Source: a virus
Strand: one strand, 5' to 3'
IMG/VR virus record: IMGVR_UViG_3300045988_143605
Location: 1 to 64,000 of that record
Length of the DNA: 64,000 bases
Of the stretch, positions 33,581 to 54,431 are shown one piece after another. Made by a program: the position numbers and the translations under genes. Under the pieces are notes generated by a model, which saw nothing but the letters and a program-made list of their open reading frames with translations, ran no database searches and was not told the DNA's origin. Each line of letters begins with the position of its first letter. The stretch's first letter is position 1.

Positions 33581-36500
33581 ATGGCTGCAGCAAAGAAAAC
33601 TCAAATCGTCATAACTGCCAATGCCGCCGTTGCCAAAAAGGTGATGGATGAGCTTCAGCAGCGCATTGACGGTATAAAACAGAAGATGGCTGCGCTCGAC
33701 GTGACGACAAAGCAGGGACAGCGCGAGTTTAAGAAACTGGAGAAAGAATTGGTTTCGTACAACTCGGCTGTGACGCAGAATATCACGAATACGGAGCGTA
33801 TAGACAAGGCTATGAAAAATTTGTCGGGCACGTCGCTTAACGAACTAAAGCGCGCGTTGTCCGCTGCCAAGAGTGAGCTTGGCAAGATGTCGGCAAGCGA
33901 CAAGGGACTGAAGCAGATGCAAGGTAACGTAAATGCGCTGCAGGCGCAAATCGACAAACTCACCGGCTCGGTGCATAAGCAGGGCAACGCATGGCAGACA
34001 GCGCTCAAAAACTTAACGGCGTATGTAGGGCTGTTTGGGGCGTTTAATATGATAAAATCAAAGCTGACAGACATATTGAAGTTGAATTTCCAGTATTCTG
34101 ACTCATTGGCTAATGTGCGTAAGGTGAGTAATCTTTCGATGGAGTCTGTTAATGATTTGTCACGCCAGTTGGCGAAGATAGACAGCCGTACCAGTCTTGA
34201 GGGACTTACACAATTGGCTTATGTGGGTAGTCGTATGGGTATGGGCAAGTATGGGGCGTCAGGTCTGGCAGAATTTGCAGCAGCCAGCGATCGTGTGAAT
34301 GTGGCATTGAAAGAGGATTTGGGTGATGATGCGATGCTTACTTTGTCTAAGTTCGTGGAAACGATGGGAGAGGTAGAAAAGCACGGTGGTAACATCAGCG
34401 ATGCTTTTGATTCTGTTTCAAGTTCCATCTTTAAATTGGCTTCTACATCTACGGCCAATGGTGGTAATATCCTTGAATTTGCGAAGCGACTTACGGGTTT
34501 GTCTAAGGTGTCGCACATTACAAGCGACCAACTTTTAGGTCTTGCCTCTGCCAGCGACTCTCTTATGCTTATGCCGGAAGTAGCCAGTACCGCTTTTGGT
34601 AAGTTAATAAGCAGTTTATGGACTAACTACCACGACATAGAGAAGATGTTGGGTATGCAAGAGGACTCCCTAAAAGACATGATGAGCAAGGGAGAAACCA
34701 TGCAGGCACTTGTAACCGTGCTTCAGAACGTGAGCGATAAAAACCTCAACTCTATGGACGAGTACTTCAAAGAGTTTGGCTCAGATGGTCAACGTTTGAA
34801 AAGCGTAGTCGTTACTATGGCTCAGAATGTAGATGTTCTGAAATCCCATCTTGACGAGTCAAGTAAGGCTTACAAAGATGCCACGGCCGTATCAAAGGAA
34901 TATGCCATACAGCAAGAGACCGCACAGGCTATAATTGAGAGAGCCAATAACATGTGGAATAAGGCTTTTGTTAATCCTGAAGGCATTGATTCCGTCAAGG
35001 AAATAGCAAAGGTATGGTACGATTTCTCGAAAACGCTTACGCAATCTACTCCATTTATGAGGTCTGCAAAGATATTGATGTGGGAGATAAAGACATCCGT
35101 TGAAATGTTGCTCAAAATATTACCAGGATTGGTAGCATATATGGGTACTCGCGGTTTGGTGTGGGCTTTTTCTAAGTTATTGCCGTTGATGATAGGTGTG
35201 TCTGGTAGCGGTGTTGTAAAATTCTTCACATTGCTAACTATGGCGGTACATGGCAATGCCGTTGCGGTTCGCTTGTTGCATATACGCTGGACAGCCATGA
35301 CTCTCGCAATGAAAGCGAATGTTATTGGTTTTGCAATATCTGCTATTGCTACACTTGGCACATGGATATATAGCCTTGTAAAAAATACTGATAATGCCAC
35401 AAAATCAGTCGAACAATTTGACAGGTCGCTAACTGGTGTTCGCAACAAGGCAAATCAGGCTGTCGGGGAACTTGATGCTTATTATCGTGCTATCAAGCGG
35501 GCAAAGAAAGGGTCTTTTGAATATCAGGCTGCAATTAAGGTCTATAATGACAAATTCGGAGTCTATTTCAAAAAGCTCGAAAGAGAGAATGGAATGGTAA
35601 AGGATTTGGCGGCCTCTTATCGCGAAGCTGCAAAGGCTATTCGTGCTAAGATGTACGTACAGATGGAGCAAGATGATAGGGATAAGTTCGTAAAGCCTCG
35701 TGCTGGCAGGTCTTTGGATAGGTTGGGCGAGTATGGGCAAATTGCACCTGAAGGCTTTGAGCAGGAAATGTTGGAAGCCTACACCAAAGACTCCTACGGA
35801 AAACAAATGAATGTTGTTGTAAAAGAACTTGCCCAGAGATTTGGAGTAAAAGATGTTAGCAATGTTCTTGCATCTGAAAACAGAGGTTTGACAAAGGCTG
35901 TTAGGCGTGAGAAAGTGCGAAAGCGTTCTTTATTTGGAGATCCGTATTATGTATATGAGGATAAGGATGTAAGTGCTAACGAGCAACAACTTTTTAGAGC
36001 CTTGCGTTATGTTCGTCAGGAACGAGCAACGCATAATACAGAATTAGGCATAGATAAAAAGTATGAGCCTGTCAGAAAACAGATGGATAACTACATTCTT
36101 TCTACGACAGGAGGTAACGAGGATTTGAATGTTCCTGATGAGAGTGGCAAAAATGGAAAGACAGGCTCAGGAAGAAACGGTAATGAGAACAAAAAAGAGG
36201 AGCAGCAGACAAAGGCTCGCGCAAATGCTCTTATTGCTAATATCAAGGCTTTCTATGAGGAACAAATGCGCAAATACCTGGAATGGGTGGCTCAGATGAA
36301 CGCCGATGGCGAAAAGGTTAGCGAAGGACAACAGAAGGAACAGTTGGATTATCTGCAATCGCAAATGGATCGTGCTCTTGGTACGGCTCGCCAGTCTATC
36401 ACTAATCTTGGCGATGGCTGGAAAGAGTTCTATTCCCACATGGATGAGGATGTGATGGTTTACGATGAGGAAACTTCTAAGCAACTGCTTGATTCGATTG

Positions 36501-38407
36501 GCAAAACGGATGTTGGCGAACTTCACAAGTTGTTCACCAAACTGTCCGGCGACCTCTCTCGTGAAAACAATAAGTCTCTTGCAGAAAACCTCGGCGCATT
36601 GCTCGACCAGATATTTGCCAATGGCTCTAAGGAATTGCGCGAGGCTGCAGAGAAGTTGCTTGCCCGTCAGCGCGAGATACAGAAGATTTTGAATGAGCAC
36701 GACTATACAGGTGCTGTTGACCGCAACACTCGTGGCAATTTCGACCGCTTAGGTTTCCTACAGCCAGCCAAGGATATTCGTGCTGACTCTCCCGAAGGTC
36801 TTGAAAAGATGAATGCTGCTTTTGATAAGCTGACCACTAAGGCACGCGAGTCTATTACCGTATTATATAGTCTTAATCCGGAGAGTGAGAATTTTCAGAA
36901 TCGGTTCCTTCAGTTCTTGTCTGTAGCCGACGAAGGGTTTGATTTCTCGGCTCTTAAGGCACAAGACCTCAAAGCTCTTTATCTCGAACTGATAAAATAC
37001 AACGACGAATACGAGTCGGCAAGCAAGAAGCGTGACGATGAGCGCAAGAAACTGAACGATTACGCTTGGTCTAACACTGATTATTATAAGGAATACCAGA
37101 AGGCACTGCCTGGTGCCGAGCAAGAGGTGGCAGTCAAGGGTAGCTATCGTAATGCCGGTCAGCGTATGGGCATGGAGTCAGTGTCGGCTTTAGACCCTGA
37201 ACTCGAACTGATGAAGGCTCGTATGGAGTTCGCCCAGCAGTATTACACGTTCCTGGAAGAGCACAATGCCACCGAGCAGCAGCTTGCTGATGCCCGAAAG
37301 TCAATAATGATGGAACAGGCTAACTATGCCAAAAAACTCACGGGAGATATGTTTGAGCAATATAACTCACTCCTTACTTTCATGGGTCCGTTGCAAACCT
37401 TTGGCGAGTCGGTAGGTGATGCCTTCGTTACTATGACCGAGAACGCAGCCGAAGGACGCAAGGCTTTGAAGACAGCCTTGAAGCAAATGATAAAATCGTT
37501 CGCTACCAACACCCTTCAGATGATTAGTCAACAGCAAATAGACCGCGCGCAAACCACTGCGCACTATACGCAGTTACTTCTCATGCAGCAGGCATTTGGT
37601 ACGGCAAAGGTAGCAGGTGAAGCAGCCACTGGAGTGGCTTTACTTACGACAAAGACGGTAAATAACCAGACAGAGGAACAGCTTGAGGTTGCCCATCAAC
37701 AGGCAATGGCAGCTCTTCGCTCTGCAGGTATCTTCGGTTGGTGTGTTAGCACTCTCGGACCTGTTGCTGGTCCAATCGCTTACGCTGCAATGATGGCAAT
37801 CCTCATGGGGTTACTAAACTTTGCAATTAGCAAGGTTGGAGGAAGTGATAACTCTAATAATAGCAACGCAAAATCCTCGAACACAAAAATCGTGTCCGGT
37901 ATGCTTACCTACGACTCCGGTAACGTGCAAGACCTCCGTCCGTTTGTCGGCAACGATGGCAGCCTCTATTGGGCGACCGAGGATGACAAACCCCACAATG
38001 GTGTATCACTCCTCACGCAGCCCACTGCCACTTCTATTAACGGTCAACCATCTCTTGTAGCCGAGAACGGCCCAGAACTGGTAATCGGACGCGAGACAAC
38101 CCAGGCGATGATGATGAACAACCCGCAACTATTGAAAGCCCTCGTAAACTACGACCGCAACTATTCCGGTCGCCGTGCTTACGACACTGGCAATATAGCC
38201 GAGACAAGCCCCACAGTAGCCGCAGGGTCGACCGTAAGCGACGAAATGGTGTCTTACCAAGCTAAAACCAACGTAGCCCTTCTACAAGCCGTAAACACGC
38301 TCCTGCAACGCTTAGAGCAACCTATCGAGGCAAAGATTGATATGTACGGCCGTGGCAAACTCTATGACAGCATGACAAAGGCTAATCAGTTTATGAAAAA
38401 CAAATAA
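33581..38407 (+). CDS. tail tape measure protein (1608 aa)
   Basis: Long coiled-coil N-terminus, a TP901-type core-like segment (...SDQLLGLASASDSLMLMPEVASTAFGKLI...), internal hydrophobic segments, and C-terminal ...VAENGPELVIGRE. Confidence 0.85.
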   Translation: MAAAKKTQIVITANAAVAKKVMDELQQRIDGIKQKMAALDVTTKQGQREFKKLEKELVSYNSAVTQNITNTERIDKAMKNLSGTSLNELKRALSAAKSELGKMSASDKGLKQMQGNVNALQAQIDKLTGSVHKQGNAWQTALKNLTAYVGLFGAFNMIKSKLTDILKLNFQYSDSLANVRKVSNLSMESVNDLSRQLAKIDSRTSLEGLTQLAYVGSRMGMGKYGASGLAEFAAASDRVNVALKEDLGDDAMLTLSKFVETMGEVEKHGGNISDAFDSVSSSIFKLASTSTANGGNILEFAKRLTGLSKVSHITSDQLLGLASASDSLMLMPEVASTAFGKLISSLWTNYHDIEKMLGMQEDSLKDMMSKGETMQALVTVLQNVSDKNLNSMDEYFKEFGSDGQRLKSVVVTMAQNVDVLKSHLDESSKAYKDATAVSKEYAIQQETAQAIIERANNMWNKAFVNPEGIDSVKEIAKVWYDFSKTLTQSTPFMRSAKILMWEIKTSVEMLLKILPGLVAYMGTRGLVWAFSKLLPLMIGVSGSGVVKFFTLLTMAVHGNAVAVRLLHIRWTAMTLAMKANVIGFAISAIATLGTWIYSLVKNTDNATKSVEQFDRSLTGVRNKANQAVGELDAYYRAIKRAKKGSFEYQAAIKVYNDKFGVYFKKLERENGMVKDLAASYREAAKAIRAKMYVQMEQDDRDKFVKPRAGRSLDRLGEYGQIAPEGFEQEMLEAYTKDSYGKQMNVVVKELAQRFGVKDVSNVLASENRGLTKAVRREKVRKRSLFGDPYYVYEDKDVSANEQQLFRALRYVRQERATHNTELGIDKKYEPVRKQMDNYILSTTGGNEDLNVPDESGKNGKTGSGRNGNENKKEEQQTKARANALIANIKAFYEEQMRKYLEWVAQMNADGEKVSEGQQKEQLDYLQSQMDRALGTARQSITNLGDGWKEFYSHMDEDVMVYDEETSKQLLDSIGKTDVGELHKLFTKLSGDLSRENNKSLAENLGALLDQIFANGSKELREAAEKLLARQREIQKILNEHDYTGAVDRNTRGNFDRLGFLQPAKDIRADSPEGLEKMNAAFDKLTTKARESITVLYSLNPESENFQNRFLQFLSVADEGFDFSALKAQDLKALYLELIKYNDEYESASKKRDDERKKLNDYAWSNTDYYKEYQKALPGAEQEVAVKGSYRNAGQRMGMESVSALDPELELMKARMEFAQQYYTFLEEHNATEQQLADARKSIMMEQANYAKKLTGDMFEQYNSLLTFMGPLQTFGESVGDAFVTMTENAAEGRKALKTALKQMIKSFATNTLQMISQQQIDRAQTTAHYTQLLLMQQAFGTAKVAGEAATGVALLTTKTVNNQTEEQLEVAHQQAMAALRSAGIFGWCVSTLGPVAGPIAYAAMMAILMGLLNFAISKVGGSDNSNNSNAKSSNTKIVSGMLTYDSGNVQDLRPFVGNDGSLYWATEDDKPHNGVSLLTQPTATSINGQPSLVAENGPELVIGRETTQAMMMNNPQLLKALVNYDRNYSGRRAYDTGNIAETSPTVAAGSTVSDEMVSYQAKTNVALLQAVNTLLQRLEQPIEAKIDMYGRGKLYDSMTKANQFMKNK

Positions 38408-43364: not shown

Positions 43365-45047
43365 ATGAAAGGTTTATTTGAAATACTAACCGAAAAGAAG
43401 AGGATGATCAGTCCCGACTTTGTGCATGGTATTCGCAAGTCGCTTGAGTATAATCTGAATACTCATACGGTTTTCAGCAAGCCAGAGAAGAACTGCGGAT
43501 ATGTTACAGCTGAGGATAAGTATGGCAACACCTATTATCCAGAGGAGTATCAGGTTTCAGAGGATGGCAAGCAGGTGAAAGGCAACTGGGTCCTAACTCT
43601 TCCTGCTGATGACGATGACGCACAGAGTTTCCCCTTCGTTTCGGTATTTTCCATTGACGGCCCTATCACACGCAACGGCGGCTATTGTTCGTATGGTTCA
43701 ATAGACCATCGCGACATGATGATGCGAGCAGCCGATCATCCTCTTTGTCGTGGTCATGTTTTCATCATCAACACTCCAGGCGGTTCTGCTTGGGCAAAGA
43801 ACGATTATGCTCTTGCCATTGACTATGCCCACTCAAAGGGTCAGAAGGTTATAGCCCTGGTTGATGGCCTTTGCGCTTCGGCTGGTATGTACCTCGCTTC
43901 GCTTTGTGACGAACGTTATTACATGAATCCGAAAGACCAGATTGGTTGCATCGGTGTGATGGCAGCGTTCTACACTTTGCCCGATGGAGCAAAAGGCAAG
44001 TACTCCGATGATACTTACCACGAGCTTTATGATCCTAAGTCGTTTGACAAGAACAAGGCATATCGCGACATTGCCAATAAGAATGATGACGAGGAGCTTA
44101 TCAAAGAGCTTGCTGAACTTGGCGTTGAGTTCCGTGCCGACGTTAAGAAGGCTTGTCCTAATGCTACTGACGAGCATCTGCATGGCAAGGTGTTCAATGC
44201 CGAGGACGTGAAGGGTATTTTGATGGACGATCAGTCAACATTCATGGGAGTAGTGCAACACGCTTTTGAGCTATATGATGGCAGAGCCGAACTTATCACC
44301 CGCGAGCAGACGGTTGATCCACAGGATGAGCCGAAGAATGAGCCGGAGCCAGAGAAACCGGAAGCAACCAACACAAACACTAATATCAATATGGAGAAAT
44401 ATCCTCTTATTTGCAACGCTTGTGGACTGCAGGCTGGCGAGATTGCCGTTACGGAAGAGGGCGCGTACATGAACGCCTCGCTTCTTGACTCTCTCGAAGC
44501 CCACATGAAGGAAGCCGAGCAGAAGGTGACTGATGCCGAGCAGAAAGCCACCACAGCGGAGAACGCTCTCGCGGAATTGCAGGGCAAGTTTGATGAACTC
44601 TCCGCTCAAGTAAACGCAGCCAACGAAGCAAAGGAAGTCGCGGAGAACGCACTTGCCCAGGCTAACGAGGCTCACAGTAAAGAACTAAGCGACCTAAACG
44701 CGCAGCACACCGAAGCCATTGCCAAAAAGGACGACGAGTTGAAAGCTCTCGTCGAGGCAAAGGACAAGGAGATTGCCCAGCTCACAGCCGACAAGACTGA
44801 TGCCGAGGCAAACTTGCAGACCGCTAAGGACGCACTTGCAACCGCCGAGCAGACCATTGCCGACAAGCAGGCTCAGATTGCCGCCCTCACCAATGAGGCT
44901 GGCGAAGAGCTGAACAGTGGAGAGTCTCCTGAAAACAATGGCGAAGGTGTGAAAACTCCGCAGCTGCGCTCGTTCGATGGTAGCAAGTACAAGACCAATG
45001 TTGAGCGTAAGGCTGCTTTCAAGCGTTTCTTGCAAGGTGAGGAATAA
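43365..45047 (+). CDS. prohead protease (S49/ClpP-fold) fused to coiled-coil scaffold
   Basis: FIINTPGGSAW ... VDGLCASAGMYLASLCD ... IGCIGVMAAF, then an Ala/Glu/Lys coiled-coil C-terminal half. Confidence 0.75.
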   Translation: MKGLFEILTEKKRMISPDFVHGIRKSLEYNLNTHTVFSKPEKNCGYVTAEDKYGNTYYPEEYQVSEDGKQVKGNWVLTLPADDDDAQSFPFVSVFSIDGPITRNGGYCSYGSIDHRDMMMRAADHPLCRGHVFIINTPGGSAWAKNDYALAIDYAHSKGQKVIALVDGLCASAGMYLASLCDERYYMNPKDQIGCIGVMAAFYTLPDGAKGKYSDDTYHELYDPKSFDKNKAYRDIANKNDDEELIKELAELGVEFRADVKKACPNATDEHLHGKVFNAEDVKGILMDDQSTFMGVVQHAFELYDGRAELITREQTVDPQDEPKNEPEPEKPEATNTNTNINMEKYPLICNACGLQAGEIAVTEEGAYMNASLLDSLEAHMKEAEQKVTDAEQKATTAENALAELQGKFDELSAQVNAANEAKEVAENALAQANEAHSKELSDLNAQHTEAIAKKDDELKALVEAKDKEIAQLTADKTDAEANLQTAKDALATAEQTIADKQAQIAALTNEAGEELNSGESPENNGEGVKTPQLRSFDGSKYKTNVERKAAFKRFLQGEE

Positions 45048-45117
45048 CTTTTGTCCGCTGCCCTCAACCAACACAAACAACACAACGATTTAACAACAAC
45101 AAAACACACAAACGATT

Positions 45118-46410
45118 ATGGCAAATTTACCTAAAGATTTTATCGGTCTTGACGCTCTTCAGCATGTAGCCGAAGAGGTGTCAAAGGAGATTGTGATGGG
45201 TCCTGGCTATTCGGATGCCGAAGAGATGGACCGCCTTGGCATCGACATCATCACTGGTGTTCAGTTCAAGCGCACTTTCCACTTGTTCATCCGCAAGGGT
45301 GGCACCACACGTCGTAAGGACGTTCATCGCGAAATCAACAGCGAATCTGGATTCTTGAAAGAGCGTACGCTTACCTCGAAGCTCTCCTGGGATAAGTTTA
45401 GTGGAAATATAGACGACTTCTGTGAGACAGTATTCGGTACAGACGCTCAGGGTCAGTTCCCTCTCTCTTCACAGGCTGTAGAGGCAATCCTCAAGGACTA
45501 TGCCGACAACCTCGCATCTCCCTTGTGGTTCGGCGACATCGCTCTTGACAATGGCGACGACTCAGTTCCTGCTCGCGATCAGCAAATGGCTCTCTACGAC
45601 GGTTTCCACACTTGCGTCAAGCACGACATCGAGGACGGTCTAATCTCAGAGGCTAACGGCAACCTCGTTCCTTGTAAGGCGATATCTGCTCCTGCTGACA
45701 ACAACGACTCTACTCCGTACGACAACTTCATCGAGTGGCACGCCAAGTGGGACGAGCGTCTGCGCAAGGTTCCAACACGTGTTTACATGAACGAGGCCTC
45801 TGCCATGAACATTGCAGCCGGTTATGCTAACAAGTTCCACGGTAACTTCCGTGTAGAGTACAACCTGGGCGACAACTTCAAGTTGCCGGGTCTCTCTAAG
45901 GTTACTATCTGTCCTATTGCCAACTTCGGCGAAGGCGACCGTATGTACGCTACCATTGACAAGAACTTTGTCTACGGTGTTGACACCAAGAGCAACCAGC
46001 AGTATGTAAGTGTCCGCCTTGGCTCCGACCGAGATCACAGAGACTTGTCTTTCCAGATTCAGTCAATCCAGGGAGCAGGTATTCGCAACTTCCTGAAATA
46101 TGCTCTCTGCGTCAGTGACGGCAATCTCGTTGCTCCTGAGTATGTAGCCGGCGACTACGACAACACTATGCTTGTGATTACTCTTGCTGGTTCTGATGGT
46201 CAGAAGCCGGACGGTACAGTGAAGGTGAACGGCACTGCTTACACCAAGCCGATTGAAACCACTCCTAATCAGATTCTCTCTCTTGAAGCAACCGATGGCA
46301 CTACCTATAAGTTTACTGGTTGGAACAACGGCAAGACCGATAAGAAGATTCAGCTCACAGCTTCCGGCATGAACATGGGTCTGATAGCCTTCTTCAAGAA
46401 GAACGGCTAA
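45118..46410 (+). CDS. major capsid protein with C-terminal Listeria-Bacteroides-repeat-like domain
   Basis: Position after the protease-scaffold gene, 430 aa, CA-rich leader. The C-terminus ...VKVNGTAYTKPIETTPNQILSLEATDGTTYKFTGWNNG resembles the Flg_new repeat. Confidence 0.7.
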   Translation: MANLPKDFIGLDALQHVAEEVSKEIVMGPGYSDAEEMDRLGIDIITGVQFKRTFHLFIRKGGTTRRKDVHREINSESGFLKERTLTSKLSWDKFSGNIDDFCETVFGTDAQGQFPLSSQAVEAILKDYADNLASPLWFGDIALDNGDDSVPARDQQMALYDGFHTCVKHDIEDGLISEANGNLVPCKAISAPADNNDSTPYDNFIEWHAKWDERLRKVPTRVYMNEASAMNIAAGYANKFHGNFRVEYNLGDNFKLPGLSKVTICPIANFGEGDRMYATIDKNFVYGVDTKSNQQYVSVRLGSDRDHRDLSFQIQSIQGAGIRNFLKYALCVSDGNLVAPEYVAGDYDNTMLVITLAGSDGQKPDGTVKVNGTAYTKPIETTPNQILSLEATDGTTYKFTGWNNGKTDKKIQLTASGMNMGLIAFFKKNG

Positions 46411-46445
46411 CCCTTAACGGAGTTTCTTTCACTCTATATTTTCAC

Positions 46446-46500
46446 GGGCGACGGTCGCGGCTGACCCGACGGAATATGCTAACCCGTCGCCCTTCTTCTC
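46446..46500 (+). terminator. hairpin after the capsid gene (attenuating terminator candidate)
   Basis: GGGCGACGG (46446-46454) pairs with CCGTCGCCC (46484-46492), followed by TTCTTCT. Confidence 0.45.
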
Positions 46501-46529
46501 CAAACAACAACACAAAAACGTTAAATATT

Positions 46530-47084
46530 ATGGGATCAGTAACATGTCCACAGCTCGTTGATGTGCTCAACGAAGACGAGTGCCTGGAGAACCTCGCAGG
46601 TCTTGGCACCGATATTTACATCGGACTGAAGAGTGAGCTTACAGCTCCTCTTGTTGCAACCGATAACAGTTATTCAACTCCTGCCTTCGCAGCAGGAAAG
46701 GGTTTGTATAAGGTGCAGTGTGCTGACGAGAAGCAGCAGATCAAGGGTTCATCGCTTGGTAAGCGCAAAGGTTTTGAGCTCACCTGTACTTTCGTGGTAG
46801 ACTCCGTAAATCCTGCAGCAGGTAAGTTGGCTCGTGCAATCAACAACAACGACATCTTCATCATCGCTAAGGATGATGATGTTTCGCAGATTATCTACGA
46901 TCCGAGCCGTAAGGTGAAGTTTGACTCAGGTGCAATCACTACCGACACTGGAGCAGCAGCAAGCGACGACCGTATCACCACTTACGAGGCTAAACTTTCT
47001 CCTGTTTATTATCCGAACCTCTACGTCACAGAGCCTACGGACGAGAAGGGCTGGGACTCGCTTCTCGCTTCAAAAAAAGAGTAA
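46530..47084 (+). CDS. structural protein, tail-tube-like (184 aa)
   Basis: Internal ATG of ORF 46476..47084, after a CA-rich leader. Abundant-structural-protein context. The family was not verified. Confidence 0.5.
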   Translation: MGSVTCPQLVDVLNEDECLENLAGLGTDIYIGLKSELTAPLVATDNSYSTPAFAAGKGLYKVQCADEKQQIKGSSLGKRKGFELTCTFVVDSVNPAAGKLARAINNNDIFIIAKDDDVSQIIYDPSRKVKFDSGAITTDTGAAASDDRITTYEAKLSPVYYPNLYVTEPTDEKGWDSLLASKKE

Positions 47085-47118
47085 GCGATATTGACACTCA
47101 GAGCGAAAGCAATATCGC
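47072..47118 (+). promoter_or_regulatory. candidate -1 programmed ribosomal frameshift cassette
   Basis: Slippery A_AAA_AAA (47072-47078) in the zero frame, 6-nt spacer GAGTAA (includes the stop), and a 9-bp hairpin GCGATATTG/CAATATCGC (47085-47093/47110-47118). Confidence 0.4.
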
Positions 47119-47244
47119 CCCCCGCAGCTCGACGATGCCGACTCTTCTTCCTTCAGCGTAAGCGACGGAGAGGAAGACACGACGGCAAAGAAGAGCAAGA
47201 AGTAATCGCTCATAACAAGGAGATGATATTATAATCATAGTGTT

Positions 47245-47296
47245 ATCCCTGCATCTATCCTTTATATACAAAAGGTATGGATGCAGGGATTTTTTA
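47245..47296 (+). terminator. rho-independent terminator
   Basis: ATCCCTGCATC pairs with GATGCAGGGAT (11 bp), followed by TTTTTTATT. Confidence 0.7.
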
Positions 47297-47381
47297 TTCT
47301 ATATATATTAGTATTCTGATAAATTTATACTAAAATTAGCGTTTTTAATTCCAAAACTAAACACAATCAGATAATTGTCAA

Positions 47382-47389
47382 TAATTTTG
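47382..47389 (+). promoter_or_regulatory. -7 box TAatTTTG upstream of the LysR gene
   Basis: TAnnTTTG followed by CA, 95 nt upstream of ATG 47484. Confidence 0.45.
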
Positions 47390-47483
47390 CAATTAGAAAA
47401 GATATTTTGATTACATTGTTGTAAATGTAGAATAACTAAAACTTATAGTTATAAACATATACTAACTAAAACTTATAGGATTT

Positions 47484-48410
47484 ATGGAACTAAGACATTT
47501 ACGCTCCTTTGTTTATGTCGCCGAAACAAAGTCGTTTAGTACGGCTGCCACACGTTGTTGCGTCACCCAGTCGGCGGTAAGCCAGCACATTCACGCCCTG
47601 GAGGACGAGTTAAGATGTAAGTTGCTTATTCGCACATCACACGGCATTATGCTCACAGAAAGCGGCGAAGCCCTGTTGCCCCGTGCCAAAGAAATACTGA
47701 AGCAGACCGAGGACTGCAAAGAGCAAATCAACGCCCTTAACAACTGCATGACCGGCGAATTGCGCATAGGCGTAGGCTCGTTTATTGCTCCGTATGTCCG
47801 CATGGCTGCATTGATATTCATGGAGAGATACCCCAACGTGCGCATCAATGCCGATTTCACCAAAGCATACCTTCTTAATCAATCGCTAAGGGCGCACATG
47901 TTAGACCTTGCTTTCACCATGAATATGGCATACCGTCACGAAGGAATAGAGTCGATACCCTGCATACCCTTTAATGTATATGCTATTATGCGCGACACCC
48001 ATCCACTTGCCTCGCTCCAAAAGGTATCGTATGAAGATATTCTGAAACACCCAATCATTATGCCAGACATAGGCGAACGTGTGATTGATACATTTCAGAA
48101 AAACATTCAGCGTGACCTATATAAGCTCAACATTAAGTGTATCATCAGCGATCCCGACGAGGCTCTTGCTTCTGTGGAAGAAACTAAATATGTAACCTTC
48201 ATGCCAAAACTCTACCTGCGCCACCACCCTACCCTTGTAGCACGTCCCATTGTCGGTCTCGAACATCAGTTGATGAGCAACGCACACTGGATGCAAGATG
48301 TACCCCAAAAGCGTGCCTCGCAACAATTTCTCGACATCATCCGTGACGAGGTAGTGCCATACATTTCCGTAGCAGAAGAGTCGCGAGGGAAATTCATGCC
48401 ACCTCGATAG
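47484..48410 (+). CDS. LysR-family transcriptional regulator
   Basis: N-terminal wHTH MELRHLRSFVYVAETKSFSTAATRCCVTQSAVSQHIHALEDEL. 308 aa with a typical LysR substrate-domain length. Confidence 0.85.
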   Translation: MELRHLRSFVYVAETKSFSTAATRCCVTQSAVSQHIHALEDELRCKLLIRTSHGIMLTESGEALLPRAKEILKQTEDCKEQINALNNCMTGELRIGVGSFIAPYVRMAALIFMERYPNVRINADFTKAYLLNQSLRAHMLDLAFTMNMAYRHEGIESIPCIPFNVYAIMRDTHPLASLQKVSYEDILKHPIIMPDIGERVIDTFQKNIQRDLYKLNIKCIISDPDEALASVEETKYVTFMPKLYLRHHPTLVARPIVGLEHQLMSNAHWMQDVPQKRASQQFLDIIRDEVVPYISVAEESRGKFMPPR

Positions 48411-53255: not shown

Positions 53256-54431
53256 ATGAAGAACGTAAATATTTTTGCAAAGATCATCGATGCGGAAGCA
53301 ATGAATCAGATAGAAAACATGGCAACGAGCGAGGCATACCGAGACTGCAAGATTTGTATCATGCCCGATTGTCATGCCGGCAAGGGATGCACCGTAGGTA
53401 CTGTGATTGAAACCCGTGGCAAGGTGGTGCCTAATACCGTAGGCGTGGATATAGGCTGTGGTATGTTGGTATTCAAGTTCGCTGAGAAGGATATAAACCT
53501 TTCGCTTCTCGACCGAATCATCAATGAGTCGGTGCCGAGCGGATTTGACGTTCATGAAAAGTCCAAGTTAAAAGATTGGAGTCCGCTTACGTCACATCTT
53601 TTGCTCGATTTGCACGAAAAGACACAAGGTTGCTTCGACCCCGACTATATCGGACGCTCGCTTGGCACCCTCGGCGGCGGCAATCACTTTATCGAGCTTG
53701 ACGAGGACGAGCAGGGTTATAAGTATCTTGTGATACATTCGGGCAGTCGTAATCTCGGAGTTAAGGTGTGCAACTTTTTCCAACACTTAGCCAAGAAGAA
53801 TGTGAATCGAAACGAGGAGCGCAAGCGCATCATCGAAGACTTAAAGAAGTACGGCTTAGAGAGGGAGATTAACAATACGTTGCGTCGTTTGGGCACCGTG
53901 CCTCCCGACCTCGCCTATCTTGAAGGCGAAGACCTCGATGCCTATATTTTCGCAGCGAACGTCTGTCGGTGTTTTGCCGACGACAACAGATGGAATATAG
54001 CAATGACTATCATCCATGGACTTCATTTACCGTTCGTGGATTTCTTTACCACCAGGCATAACTACCTCGACATACACTCAGGCATCATCCGAAAAGGAGC
54101 CGTGCGTGCCGAAAATGGCGAACAGCTTATCATCCCACTTAATATGCGCGACGGTTCGTTGATATGTCGCGGCAAGGGCAACGACGACTGGCTTCAGTCC
54201 GCTCCCCACGGTGCAGGCAGACTAATGTCGCGCTCGGCGGCCAAGAAGCTGCTCAGCATGGAGGAATACCGACAGCAGATGCAGGACATTTACTCCACAT
54301 CGGTATGCGAGTCAACAATCGACGAGTCGCCAATGGCGTACAAGCCTGCCGAAGAGATAGAATCGCTTATAGCCGACACTGTGGACGTGGTGAGGAGAAT
54401 TAAACCGATATACAACTTCAAAGCGAAATAA
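53256..54431 (+). CDS. rtcB: RtcB-family RNA 3'-phosphate ligase
   Basis: MPDCHAGKG, GGGNHFIELD, HSGSRNLG and APHGAGR motifs in canonical order. 391 aa. Confidence 0.9.
   Translation: MKNVNIFAKIIDAEAMNQIENMATSEAYRDCKICIMPDCHAGKGCTVGTVIETRGKVVPNTVGVDIGCGMLVFKFAEKDINLSLLDRIINESVPSGFDVHEKSKLKDWSPLTSHLLLDLHEKTQGCFDPDYIGRSLGTLGGGNHFIELDEDEQGYKYLVIHSGSRNLGVKVCNFFQHLAKKNVNRNEERKRIIEDLKKYGLEREINNTLRRLGTVPPDLAYLEGEDLDAYIFAANVCRCFADDNRWNIAMTIIHGLHLPFVDFFTTRHNYLDIHSGIIRKGAVRAENGEQLIIPLNMRDGSLICRGKGNDDWLQSAPHGAGRLMSRSAAKKLLSMEEYRQQMQDIYSTSVCESTIDESPMAYKPAEEIESLIADTVDVVRRIKPIYNFKAK

Follow-up and report, generated by a model that had tools for sequence, protein, structure and literature searches.

Does a gene that appears to encode one protein of 184 amino acids (aa) in fact yield two products, the second of them made by ribosomes that change frame at its 3' end? 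This question is raised by an open reading frame (ORF) in a viral DNA stretch of 64,000 nucleotides (nt), positions 1 to 64,000 of IMG/VR record IMGVR_UViG_3300045988_143605, which is called the window here and in whose numbering all coordinates are given. The ORF, at 46530-47084, ends GCT TCA AAA AAA GAG TAA and is followed by a hairpin, and a sequence-only reading had taken this end as a -1 frameshift cassette of a tail-tube-like gene. Comparison with homologous loci makes it very probable that this is indeed a programmed -1 ribosomal frameshift site ending the gene for a probable major tail (tube) protein, that is, a well-supported new case of a recoding mode already known from other phages.

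The shift site and the proposed mechanism

The elements of the cassette are collected in Table 1. The end of the ORF, the register of the run of seven A (A7), the 6-nt spacer, the 9-base-pair (bp) hairpin at 47085-47118 and the -1-frame stop at 47159-47161 are all present as the sequence-only reading had claimed. In the proposed mechanism, most ribosomes would read TCA AAA AAA GAG and terminate at the TAA to give the short form. Two lysine tRNAs would occupy A_AAA_AAA while the hairpin 6 nt downstream, together with the nearby 0-frame stop, would hold the ribosome, and a fraction of ribosomes would slip one base back into the -1 frame, adding a short, acidic, Ser/Thr-rich and probably disordered tail. 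In the normal allele this tail would have 42 residues, giving a long form of 225 aa with its stop at the TAA in the conserved TAATCGCTC; in the window allele a 1-nt deletion after a run of six C (C6) would leave a tail of 27 residues and a long form of 210 aa. The trans-frame junction of the long form is predicted to read ...LLASKK-RVSDIDTQSESNIAP..., with the junction peptides GWDSLLASKKR and VSDIDTQSESNIAPQQLDDADSSSFSVSDGEEDTTAK.

Table 1. Features of the frameshift cassette and its surroundings in the window
Feature	Position	Strand	Basis or remark
0-frame gene, 184-aa short form; probable major tail (tube) protein	46530 (ATG)..47084	+	ORF read from sequence
Putative slippery heptamer A_AAA_AAA, X_XXY_YYZ register	47072..47078	+	A7 begins at codon position 3
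-1-frame extension as encoded here, RVSDIDTQSESNIAPRSSTMPTLLPSA; 27 codons + stop 47159-47161; predicted long form 210 aa	47078..47161	+	
0-frame stop TAA, one codon past the shift site	47082..47084	+	read from sequence
Predicted stimulatory hairpin S1; arms GCGATATTG (47085-47093) and CAATATCGC (47110-47118), loop 47094-47109	47085..47118	+	fold z and relatives
S1 loop motif GAGCGA	47101..47106	+	55/64 unique sequences; variants GAGCGG, GGGCGA, GAGTGA, GAGCGC
Site of 1-nt deletion; relatives read CCCCCC-A-GCAG	47123..47124	+	comparison with relatives
Remainder of ancestral extension, out of phase here, QLDDADSSSFSVSDGEEDTTAKKSKK; stop 47203-47205	47125..47205	+	-1 frame in relatives
Candidate stem-loop S3; closing pairs GCUC 47127-47130 / GAGC 47193-47196	47127..47196	+	inferred from folding
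Conserved TAATCGCTC, ancestral -1 stop + UCGCUC; candidate S2 partner	47203..47211	+	complementary to GAGCGA
Intrinsic terminator; TCCCTGCATC 47246-47255 / GATGCAGGGA 47280-47289, then T6	47246..47295	+	in minimum-free-energy fold; conserved in relatives

A7 runs are not enriched in the window (21 found against 20.3 expected), while the hairpin, with 9 bp, a 16-nt loop and a spacer of 6 nt from the heptamer, folds alone at -11.7 kcal/mol against -3.8 +/- 1.9 in shuffled sequences (z = -4.15; none of 200 shuffles was as good), so that in the single sequence only the hairpin stands out. The significance of the cassette derives from its conservation among relatives.

Conservation of the cassette among relatives

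A total of 213 homologues was found, nearly all of them of 180-190 aa and ending in GWDSLLAS plus 3-8 aa. The DNA of 186 loci was fetched and falls into two classes, one with the cassette (106 loci, 72 unique) and one without the extension (41 unique ends). The shift site in the former class is A_AAA_AAA in 68 loci, A_AAA_AAC in 21, G_GGG_GAA in 6, G_GGG_GGA in 5, a run of nine A (A9) in 3 and A_AAA directly followed by a stop in 2. In spite of these six site types, the run begins at codon position 3 in 105 of the 106 loci, the exception being locus L097, and wherever a run is recognisable (105 relatives) the 0-frame stop lies 0-1 codon past it. The hairpin of the cassette class sits 5-6 nt downstream. 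Site, stop, hairpin and open -1 frame are thus co-conserved in 106 loci, and the homologue alignment that had been proposed as a check of the cassette bears it out, the extension being conserved as an open -1 frame and the slippery site and hairpin being kept.

The -1 frame carries the marks of a coding sequence. It is free of stops over 30-72 codons in the relatives, and only the window and two loci with the same deletion are shorter (26-27 codons). The extensions comprise 58 distinct peptides, every length difference among them is a multiple of 3, and the other two frames contain stops while the -1 frame never does. The -1 frame also has the lowest ratio of non-synonymous to synonymous polymorphism (pN/pS), 0.46, the other two frames having 0.79 and 1.38. 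In addition, several types have a -1-frame stop shortly before the run and lack a start codon downstream of it, and in these the -1 frame is therefore reachable only by shifting.

The hairpin, too, is preserved through change. The arms of S1 vary among subclades and still pair, as GCGATATTG/CAATATCGC, GGCGACACGG/CCGCTGTCGCC, GGCGGAAC/GCTTCCGCC and AGCGGGT/ACCCGCT, with compensatory changes of AU/GC at one pair and UA/AU/CG/GC at the next. In an alignment of 20 sequences, S1 pairing is kept in 87% of cells, compared with 75.5% in shuffles and 25-50% with slid partners. Both sides have changed at five pairs (0-4 of 500 shuffles as high), among which pairs 22-55, 23-54 and 24-53 of alignment A3 are listed, and the covariation score reaches 0.371, shuffles giving 0.173 and none of 500 being as high. 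Conservation and co-occurrence of the signals, covariation of the RNA and a coding signature in the -1 frame are seen together at this locus.

In the 41 unique homologue ends without the extension, the GAGCGA hairpin occurs in none, a run of at least 5 occurs in only one, where it does not adjoin the stop, and the 3' motif found past the -1 stop is kept only in L010. That locus (L010:3513-3560) carries a deletion from the 5' arm of the hairpin to AATCGCTC, with the junction GCGAC|AATCGCTC, and its A7 is interrupted to AAAGAAA. Since the deletion and AAAGAAA occur in one sequence, extension and slippery site were lost together there. L097 (L097:3528-3730) has a homologous -1 extension of 51 codons, a hairpin and a GAGCGA loop.

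The one-nucleotide deletion

The tail encoded in the window is shorter than in nearly all relatives owing to a single missing base. The distance from ATCGC to CTCGACGAT is 10 nt in relatives and 9 nt in the window; the closest sequences read CCCCCCAGCAG, whereas the window reads CCCCCCGCAG, and the base lost is an A directly after the C6 run (47118-47123). Ten independent assemblies encode a 184-aa protein identical to that of the window. Eight of these are undeleted and have an in-phase tail of 41-42 codons, and two, L173 (SRR10692525) and L175 (ERZ28634310), share the deletion. Because two further assemblies share it while eight keep the A, the deletion is a recurring allele and not an undercall of C6. 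Because this truncating allele circulates in the lineage of the window, most of the tail would be dispensable, at least there. The allele gives the 210-aa long form a shorter and altered end, which suggests a dispensable distal tail, SPP1 gp17.1* being dispensable too (PMC8718954).

The sequence-only reading had proposed that a further -1 shift at C6 leads into the third frame. It gave the ending of that frame, ...PPQLDDADSSSFSVSDGEEDTTAKKSKK, correctly, but put its stop at 47212-47214; the stop is the TAA at 47203-47205, AATCGCTC occupying 47204-47211, and the difference is a 9-nt miscount. The second shift itself is not supported by the comparison: the extension is one continuous -1 frame in every relative and the window has merely lost one A. 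Judged from these relatives, a second programmed shift is unnecessary.

Alternative explanations

Could the apparent recoding be explained otherwise? A programmed second shift at C6 that restores the acidic tail in this genome would have in its favor that C_CCC lets a proline tRNA re-pair in the -1 frame, that the frame downstream of C6 is intact up to 47205, and that the deletion allele is present in two further assemblies. However, the double-shift layout exists solely in the deletion allele, the tail being one frame in all other loci; C_CCC_CGC does not conform to X_XXY_YYZ, and C6 overlaps the 3' arm of S1 and lacks a spacer and structure of its own, all of which makes such a shift very unlikely. 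Still less credible, to the point of being negligible, is a sequencing or assembly artefact, in which A7 and C6 would be one-base undercalls (of A8 and C7, as the sequence-only reading had allowed) and the true gene would be one longer ORF. One database protein, P0110 (226 aa, L166:1501-2181), is an in-frame fusion of this kind and was the only one with this tail when in-frame fusions were sought among database proteins as a sign that every subunit can bear the tail, but it comes from a contig of 2.2x coverage with a 1-nt insertion that turns TCA into TACA and with a split LysR gene, and it is most likely an assembly error carried on by the gene caller. A7 together with its 0-frame stop is found again in 68 loci drawn from dozens of assemblies, at the second run six C are normal, and the undercall idea also fails since the base missing in the window, the A after C6, is not within a homopolymer.

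Transcriptional slippage, by which RNA polymerase would insert an additional A (or G) into the homopolymer so that an edited mRNA gives the long form, deserves more attention, because one extra base would yield the identical product and A7 and A9 runs are slippage-prone bacterial templates (reviewed in PMC5009743). The G5, G6, A6C and A4 sites, however, are too short for efficient slippage and the whole arrangement is still kept with them; moreover, a fixed start at codon position 3 matters only to a ribosome, and a covarying hairpin at 5-6 nt and an adjoining 0-frame stop are ribosomal stimulators. Since the register is fixed and the G5, G6 and A4 sites are short, slippage is not regarded as the main route and is improbable as the explanation. 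To the same degree improbable is the absence of any recoding, the region after the stop being a structured 3' untranslated region (UTR) that serves mRNA stability or termination, with the open -1 frame as a by-product. The region 47079-47300 is strongly structured (z = -6.0), the extension RNA forms a closed stem-loop in most types, the tail sequence is weakly constrained and a frame-breaking allele circulates, all as this explanation would have it. A UTR, on the other hand, needs neither a shift-prone run in a fixed codon register, kept across six independent site types, nor multiple-of-3 indels and a single stop-free frame across 58 distinct peptides, and in L010 the loss of the extension accompanies the loss of A7.

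Programmed -1 frameshifting is accordingly preferred, and several points that weigh against it must be set beside the evidence above. Actual shifting, its efficiency and the role of the tail are inferred. G_GGG_GAA and A_AAA plus stop are not classical heptamers, and L097 has its extension with no recognisable slippery run (...AAA GCG TCG GTG TAG) and no UCGCUC past the stop. The allele of the window, shared by L173 and L175, cuts the tail short, amino-acid constraint on the tail is only moderate, and constraint on RNA structure in the region could inflate the coding signal. Furthermore, the tail-tube identity of the protein comes solely from similarity of fold, with no match to a Pfam or PHROG family.

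A candidate long-range RNA structure

The stimulator of the shift may be larger than the hairpin. The loop motif GAGCGA is the exact complement of UCGCUC at 47206-47211, and each is the only invariant motif of the loop and of the tail end, respectively. TCGCTC is present in 58 of 64 unique sequences and TCGCTT in one; AATCGCTC occurs just twice in the window. The conservation of UCGCUC is not explained by coding in the -1 frame, because the motif lies past the -1 stop. In the loop, the codon before the serine always ends in G (CAG 54, AAG 8, CTG 1, ACG 1), although a synonymous A would be possible, while the third position directly past the motif varies freely. In 12 of 24 representatives no other site within 330 nt pairs better with the loop than the UCGCUC site; in most others this site ranks among the top 3%, and it is unpaired in the knot-free minimum-free-energy fold. 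All four single changes seen preserve the pairing through G.U, three of them in the loop (GAGCGG, GGGCGA, GAGTGA) and one in the 3' motif (TCGCTT). The single clade with a GAGCGC loop has no UCGCUC; it has GCGCU 14 nt past its stop, and a scan for further relatives of this clade gave no new sequences. Double substitutions in this candidate stem, called S2, are few among the 64 unique sequences, and the events were picked out post hoc.

Folding of the sequence between the two motifs is in keeping with such a contact. The RNA from the hairpin to the -1 stop has z below -2.3 in 12 of 17 representatives (-2.78 in the window), and the extension RNA forms one closed domain in 15 of 18, against 4.4 expected from shuffles. 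Because it closes into one domain, UCGCUC would be brought next to the hairpin, and because the S2 partner directly follows the trans-frame stop, the middle stem-loop S3 would be the entire trans-frame ORF. Other partners of the loop were considered: pairing with UCGCUU, which in the window stands shortly before the shift site, and pairing with GCUC 8 nt after S1 were both rejected, neither being conserved outside one subclade. In the tails of type A, UCGCUC alternatively pairs locally with the GAGC of AAG-AGC codons; this local hairpin is broken in 4 of 26 type-A sequences and absent in other types. As a side observation, AGAGCGA occurs 18 times in the whole window against 9.2 +/- 3.3 expected (1 of 100 shuffles as high), one copy being the hairpin loop at 47100-47106.

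The cassette also seems to have a history apart from that of its gene. Compared with L115 and L123, the window shows 57% DNA identity over the gene body but 91% over the cassette; compared with L001, it shows 97% over the body and 79% over the cassette. Since these identities to relatives disagree, cassette and gene body recombine independently, and the identity of the capsid gene tracks neither. Beside this, two deeply divergent alleles of the tail-tube-like gene (46530-47060 versus L115, L123 and L098 3001-3530), with about 57% DNA and 49% protein identity, are swapped among phages whose capsid genes are up to 92% identical.

From these observations it is tentatively proposed, as a conjecture that is somewhat more doubtful than probable, that the stimulator is a three-stem long-range pseudoknot (S1, S3, S2) spanning the whole trans-frame ORF and that the cassette is a module mobile between divergent alleles. 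If this is true, a shifting ribosome would melt the entire stimulator and terminate at its 3' edge, shifting could be self-limiting and so set the ratio of long to short form, and much of the conservation would be due to the fold of the RNA and not to the peptide sequence.

The protein and its tail

An AlphaFold (AF2) model of the 184-aa protein built on 84 homologues has a pLDDT (predicted local distance difference test) score of 91.3. Against the predicted viral structures of BFVD, Foldseek gave matches with E values of 3e-8 to 1e-5 and template modelling (TM) scores of 0.62-0.71, the targets being uncharacterised siphovirus proteins and one annotated "Major tail protein". Matches in the PDB were weak and almost all to proteins of the tail-tube/Hcp type (lambda gpV, SPP1, Bxb1, gene transfer agent (GTA) and 80alpha). 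The protein itself matched nothing in Pfam or PHROG, a profile search of PDB sequences was empty, and a scan of the 84 homologues one by one against PHROG gave one weak match to a major tail protein. On the strength of its modelled fold, the protein is probably a major tail (tube) protein, and the label "tail-tube-like" of the sequence-only reading agrees with the predicted fold, tail-tube proteins dominating the Foldseek lists.

The tail types are all net negative (-1 to -10), Ser/Thr-rich and poor in hydrophobic residues, and the extensions (26-72 aa) contain no Pfam domain above cut-off. They diverge widely past the first approximately 14 residues, which are those encoded by the hairpin. 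By analogy with structural isoforms of phages, the extension is likely to be a flexible tail exposed on the surface of a minority of tube subunits, and its role, as in other isoforms made by frameshifting, would likely be that of a sub-stoichiometric decoration outside the tail tube. A distant homologue, P0114 (203 aa), has an in-frame acidic Ser/Asp-rich tail (…LLASAADSSHDGDDSSHDSDDSSLDAG), so some lineages may put a similar tail on every subunit without recoding.

Genomic setting

The source of the window is an uncultured long-tailed phage of gut Bacteroidales (Prevotella type). Relatives lie on IMG/VR contigs of 50-105 kb and in Prevotella/Bacteroidales metagenome bins, and the phage is long-tailed because a tape-measure gene is present (33581-38407), about 8 kb upstream of the tail-tube-like gene. 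Upstream of the latter are an S49 protease/scaffold fusion (43365-45047) and a 430-aa ORF (45118-46410) in the position of a capsid gene, which had no Pfam or PHROG match and no tblastn match in 50,697 GenBank phage records. The same records gave no match to the DNA (blastn) or to the 184-aa protein, and that collection contains no cultured or deposited relative of the phage group. Rfam gave nothing relevant on 46800-47500.

The gene order is unusual in that the tape-measure gene, with the genes around it, lies upstream of the protease/scaffold, capsid and tail-tube-like genes (33581-38407; 43365-47084), and the tail-tube-like gene is the last of its operon and does not adjoin the tape-measure gene. 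A G/GT-type overlap was looked for upstream of the tape-measure gene and none was seen. Downstream come the terminator, which a simple terminator scan did not pick up owing to its long loop, and a LysR-type gene (47484-48410). This LysR-family regulator stands between the terminator and the next phage genes; in relatives such as L097 and L156 a lysozyme-like gene (…FILSFEGGFVNDPKDRGGATNRGV…) takes its place, and because of this other occupant the LysR gene looks like cargo inserted in part of the clade. Further downstream, at 53256-54431, an RtcB-type tRNA/RNA ligase is encoded (PHROG E = 6e-124). RtcB-type ligases typically counter host anticodon nucleases.

Comparison with known systems

How does this site compare with other recoded phage genes? 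SPP1 uses a +1 shift, and what it adds is a folded domain of the FN3/Ig-like or carbohydrate-binding kind with roughly 100 residues or more. In SPP1 (gp17.1/gp17.1*) and in 936-group lactococcal phages (TpeX), a programmed frameshift at the 3' end lets one gene make two tail-tube forms, of which the long one is minor (3:1 in SPP1) and dispensable (PMC8718954, PMC6669499). The present cassette is like them as a proposed 3'-end frameshift of a probable tail-tube gene that would give an extended form, and differs in that the shift is -1 in all loci and the extension is of 30-72 residues, acidic, of low complexity and free of domains. In the Listeria phages A118, A500 and PSA, recoding at the 3' end of the capsid gene (cps) and of the tail-shaft gene (tsh) yields a second product with a C-terminal extension, a stop codon or pseudoknot adjoining the site serving as stimulator. 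The tail gene shifts +1 at CCC_UGA in all three phages, and a -1 shift is confined to the capsid gene in A118 and A500 (PMC5009743). Their proteins have no sequence similarity to the present one, and the tail-gene shift here is -1. In T7, a -1 shift near the end of the major structural gene 10 (10A/10B), at G_GUU_UUC, adds a short non-Ig tail, and a distal 3' element more than 200 nt downstream, CCCC in the terminator, contributes to it (PMC5009743). Gene 10 of T3 is likewise known for a long form made by frameshifting. The T7 gene, however, is that of the capsid, whereas here the gene is tail-tube-like and the part of the distal element might fall to UCGCUC at the -1 stop.

Lambda-type G/GT makes a -1 shift between the tail-tube and tape-measure genes and adds a long second domain. 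The present case resembles it as a -1 shift in a tail-module gene of a long-tailed phage, but here the gene follows the capsid gene and precedes a terminator, the tape-measure gene is 8 kb upstream and the extension has at most 72 codons. The proposed S1/S3/S2 topology matches that of the apical loop-internal loop (ALIL) pseudoknots of the IS3411 type and of the SARS-CoV pseudoknot, a three-stem structure in which part of loop 3 makes the third stem (PMC5009743). In contrast with ALIL, the partner here appears single-stranded and is not an internal loop, and it lies 85-190 nt away, directly past the trans-frame stop. In pea enation mosaic virus RNA2, a 0-frame stop 3 nt past the heptamer affects efficiency and there is a long-distance RNA interaction (PMC5009743); both have a counterpart here, namely a 0-frame stop 3 nt past the heptamer and a candidate long-distance interaction, although there a eukaryotic (plant) RNA virus makes a replicase by the shift and the interaction spans kilobases. 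What sets the present site apart from the known cases is therefore the -1 direction on a tail-tube-like gene, the short acidic tail free of domains and the different host group.

Significance

The recoding site was found undescribed in full-text literature searches and unmatched in GenBank phage records, Pfam, PHROGs and Rfam, and it adds a well-documented case from gut Bacteroidales phages. Gene callers annotate only the 184-aa form, so that the long isoform is missing from every database entry. Six kinds of shift site, hairpins in four versions and over 50 variants of the tail together form a natural mutational data set for -1 frameshifting in Bacteroidota. If the three-stem structure is true, it would furthermore show for a phage that a stimulator can enclose its own trans-frame ORF. 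Finally, an acidic and variable tail on a surface-exposed virion protein may bear on the behaviour of these phages in the gut.

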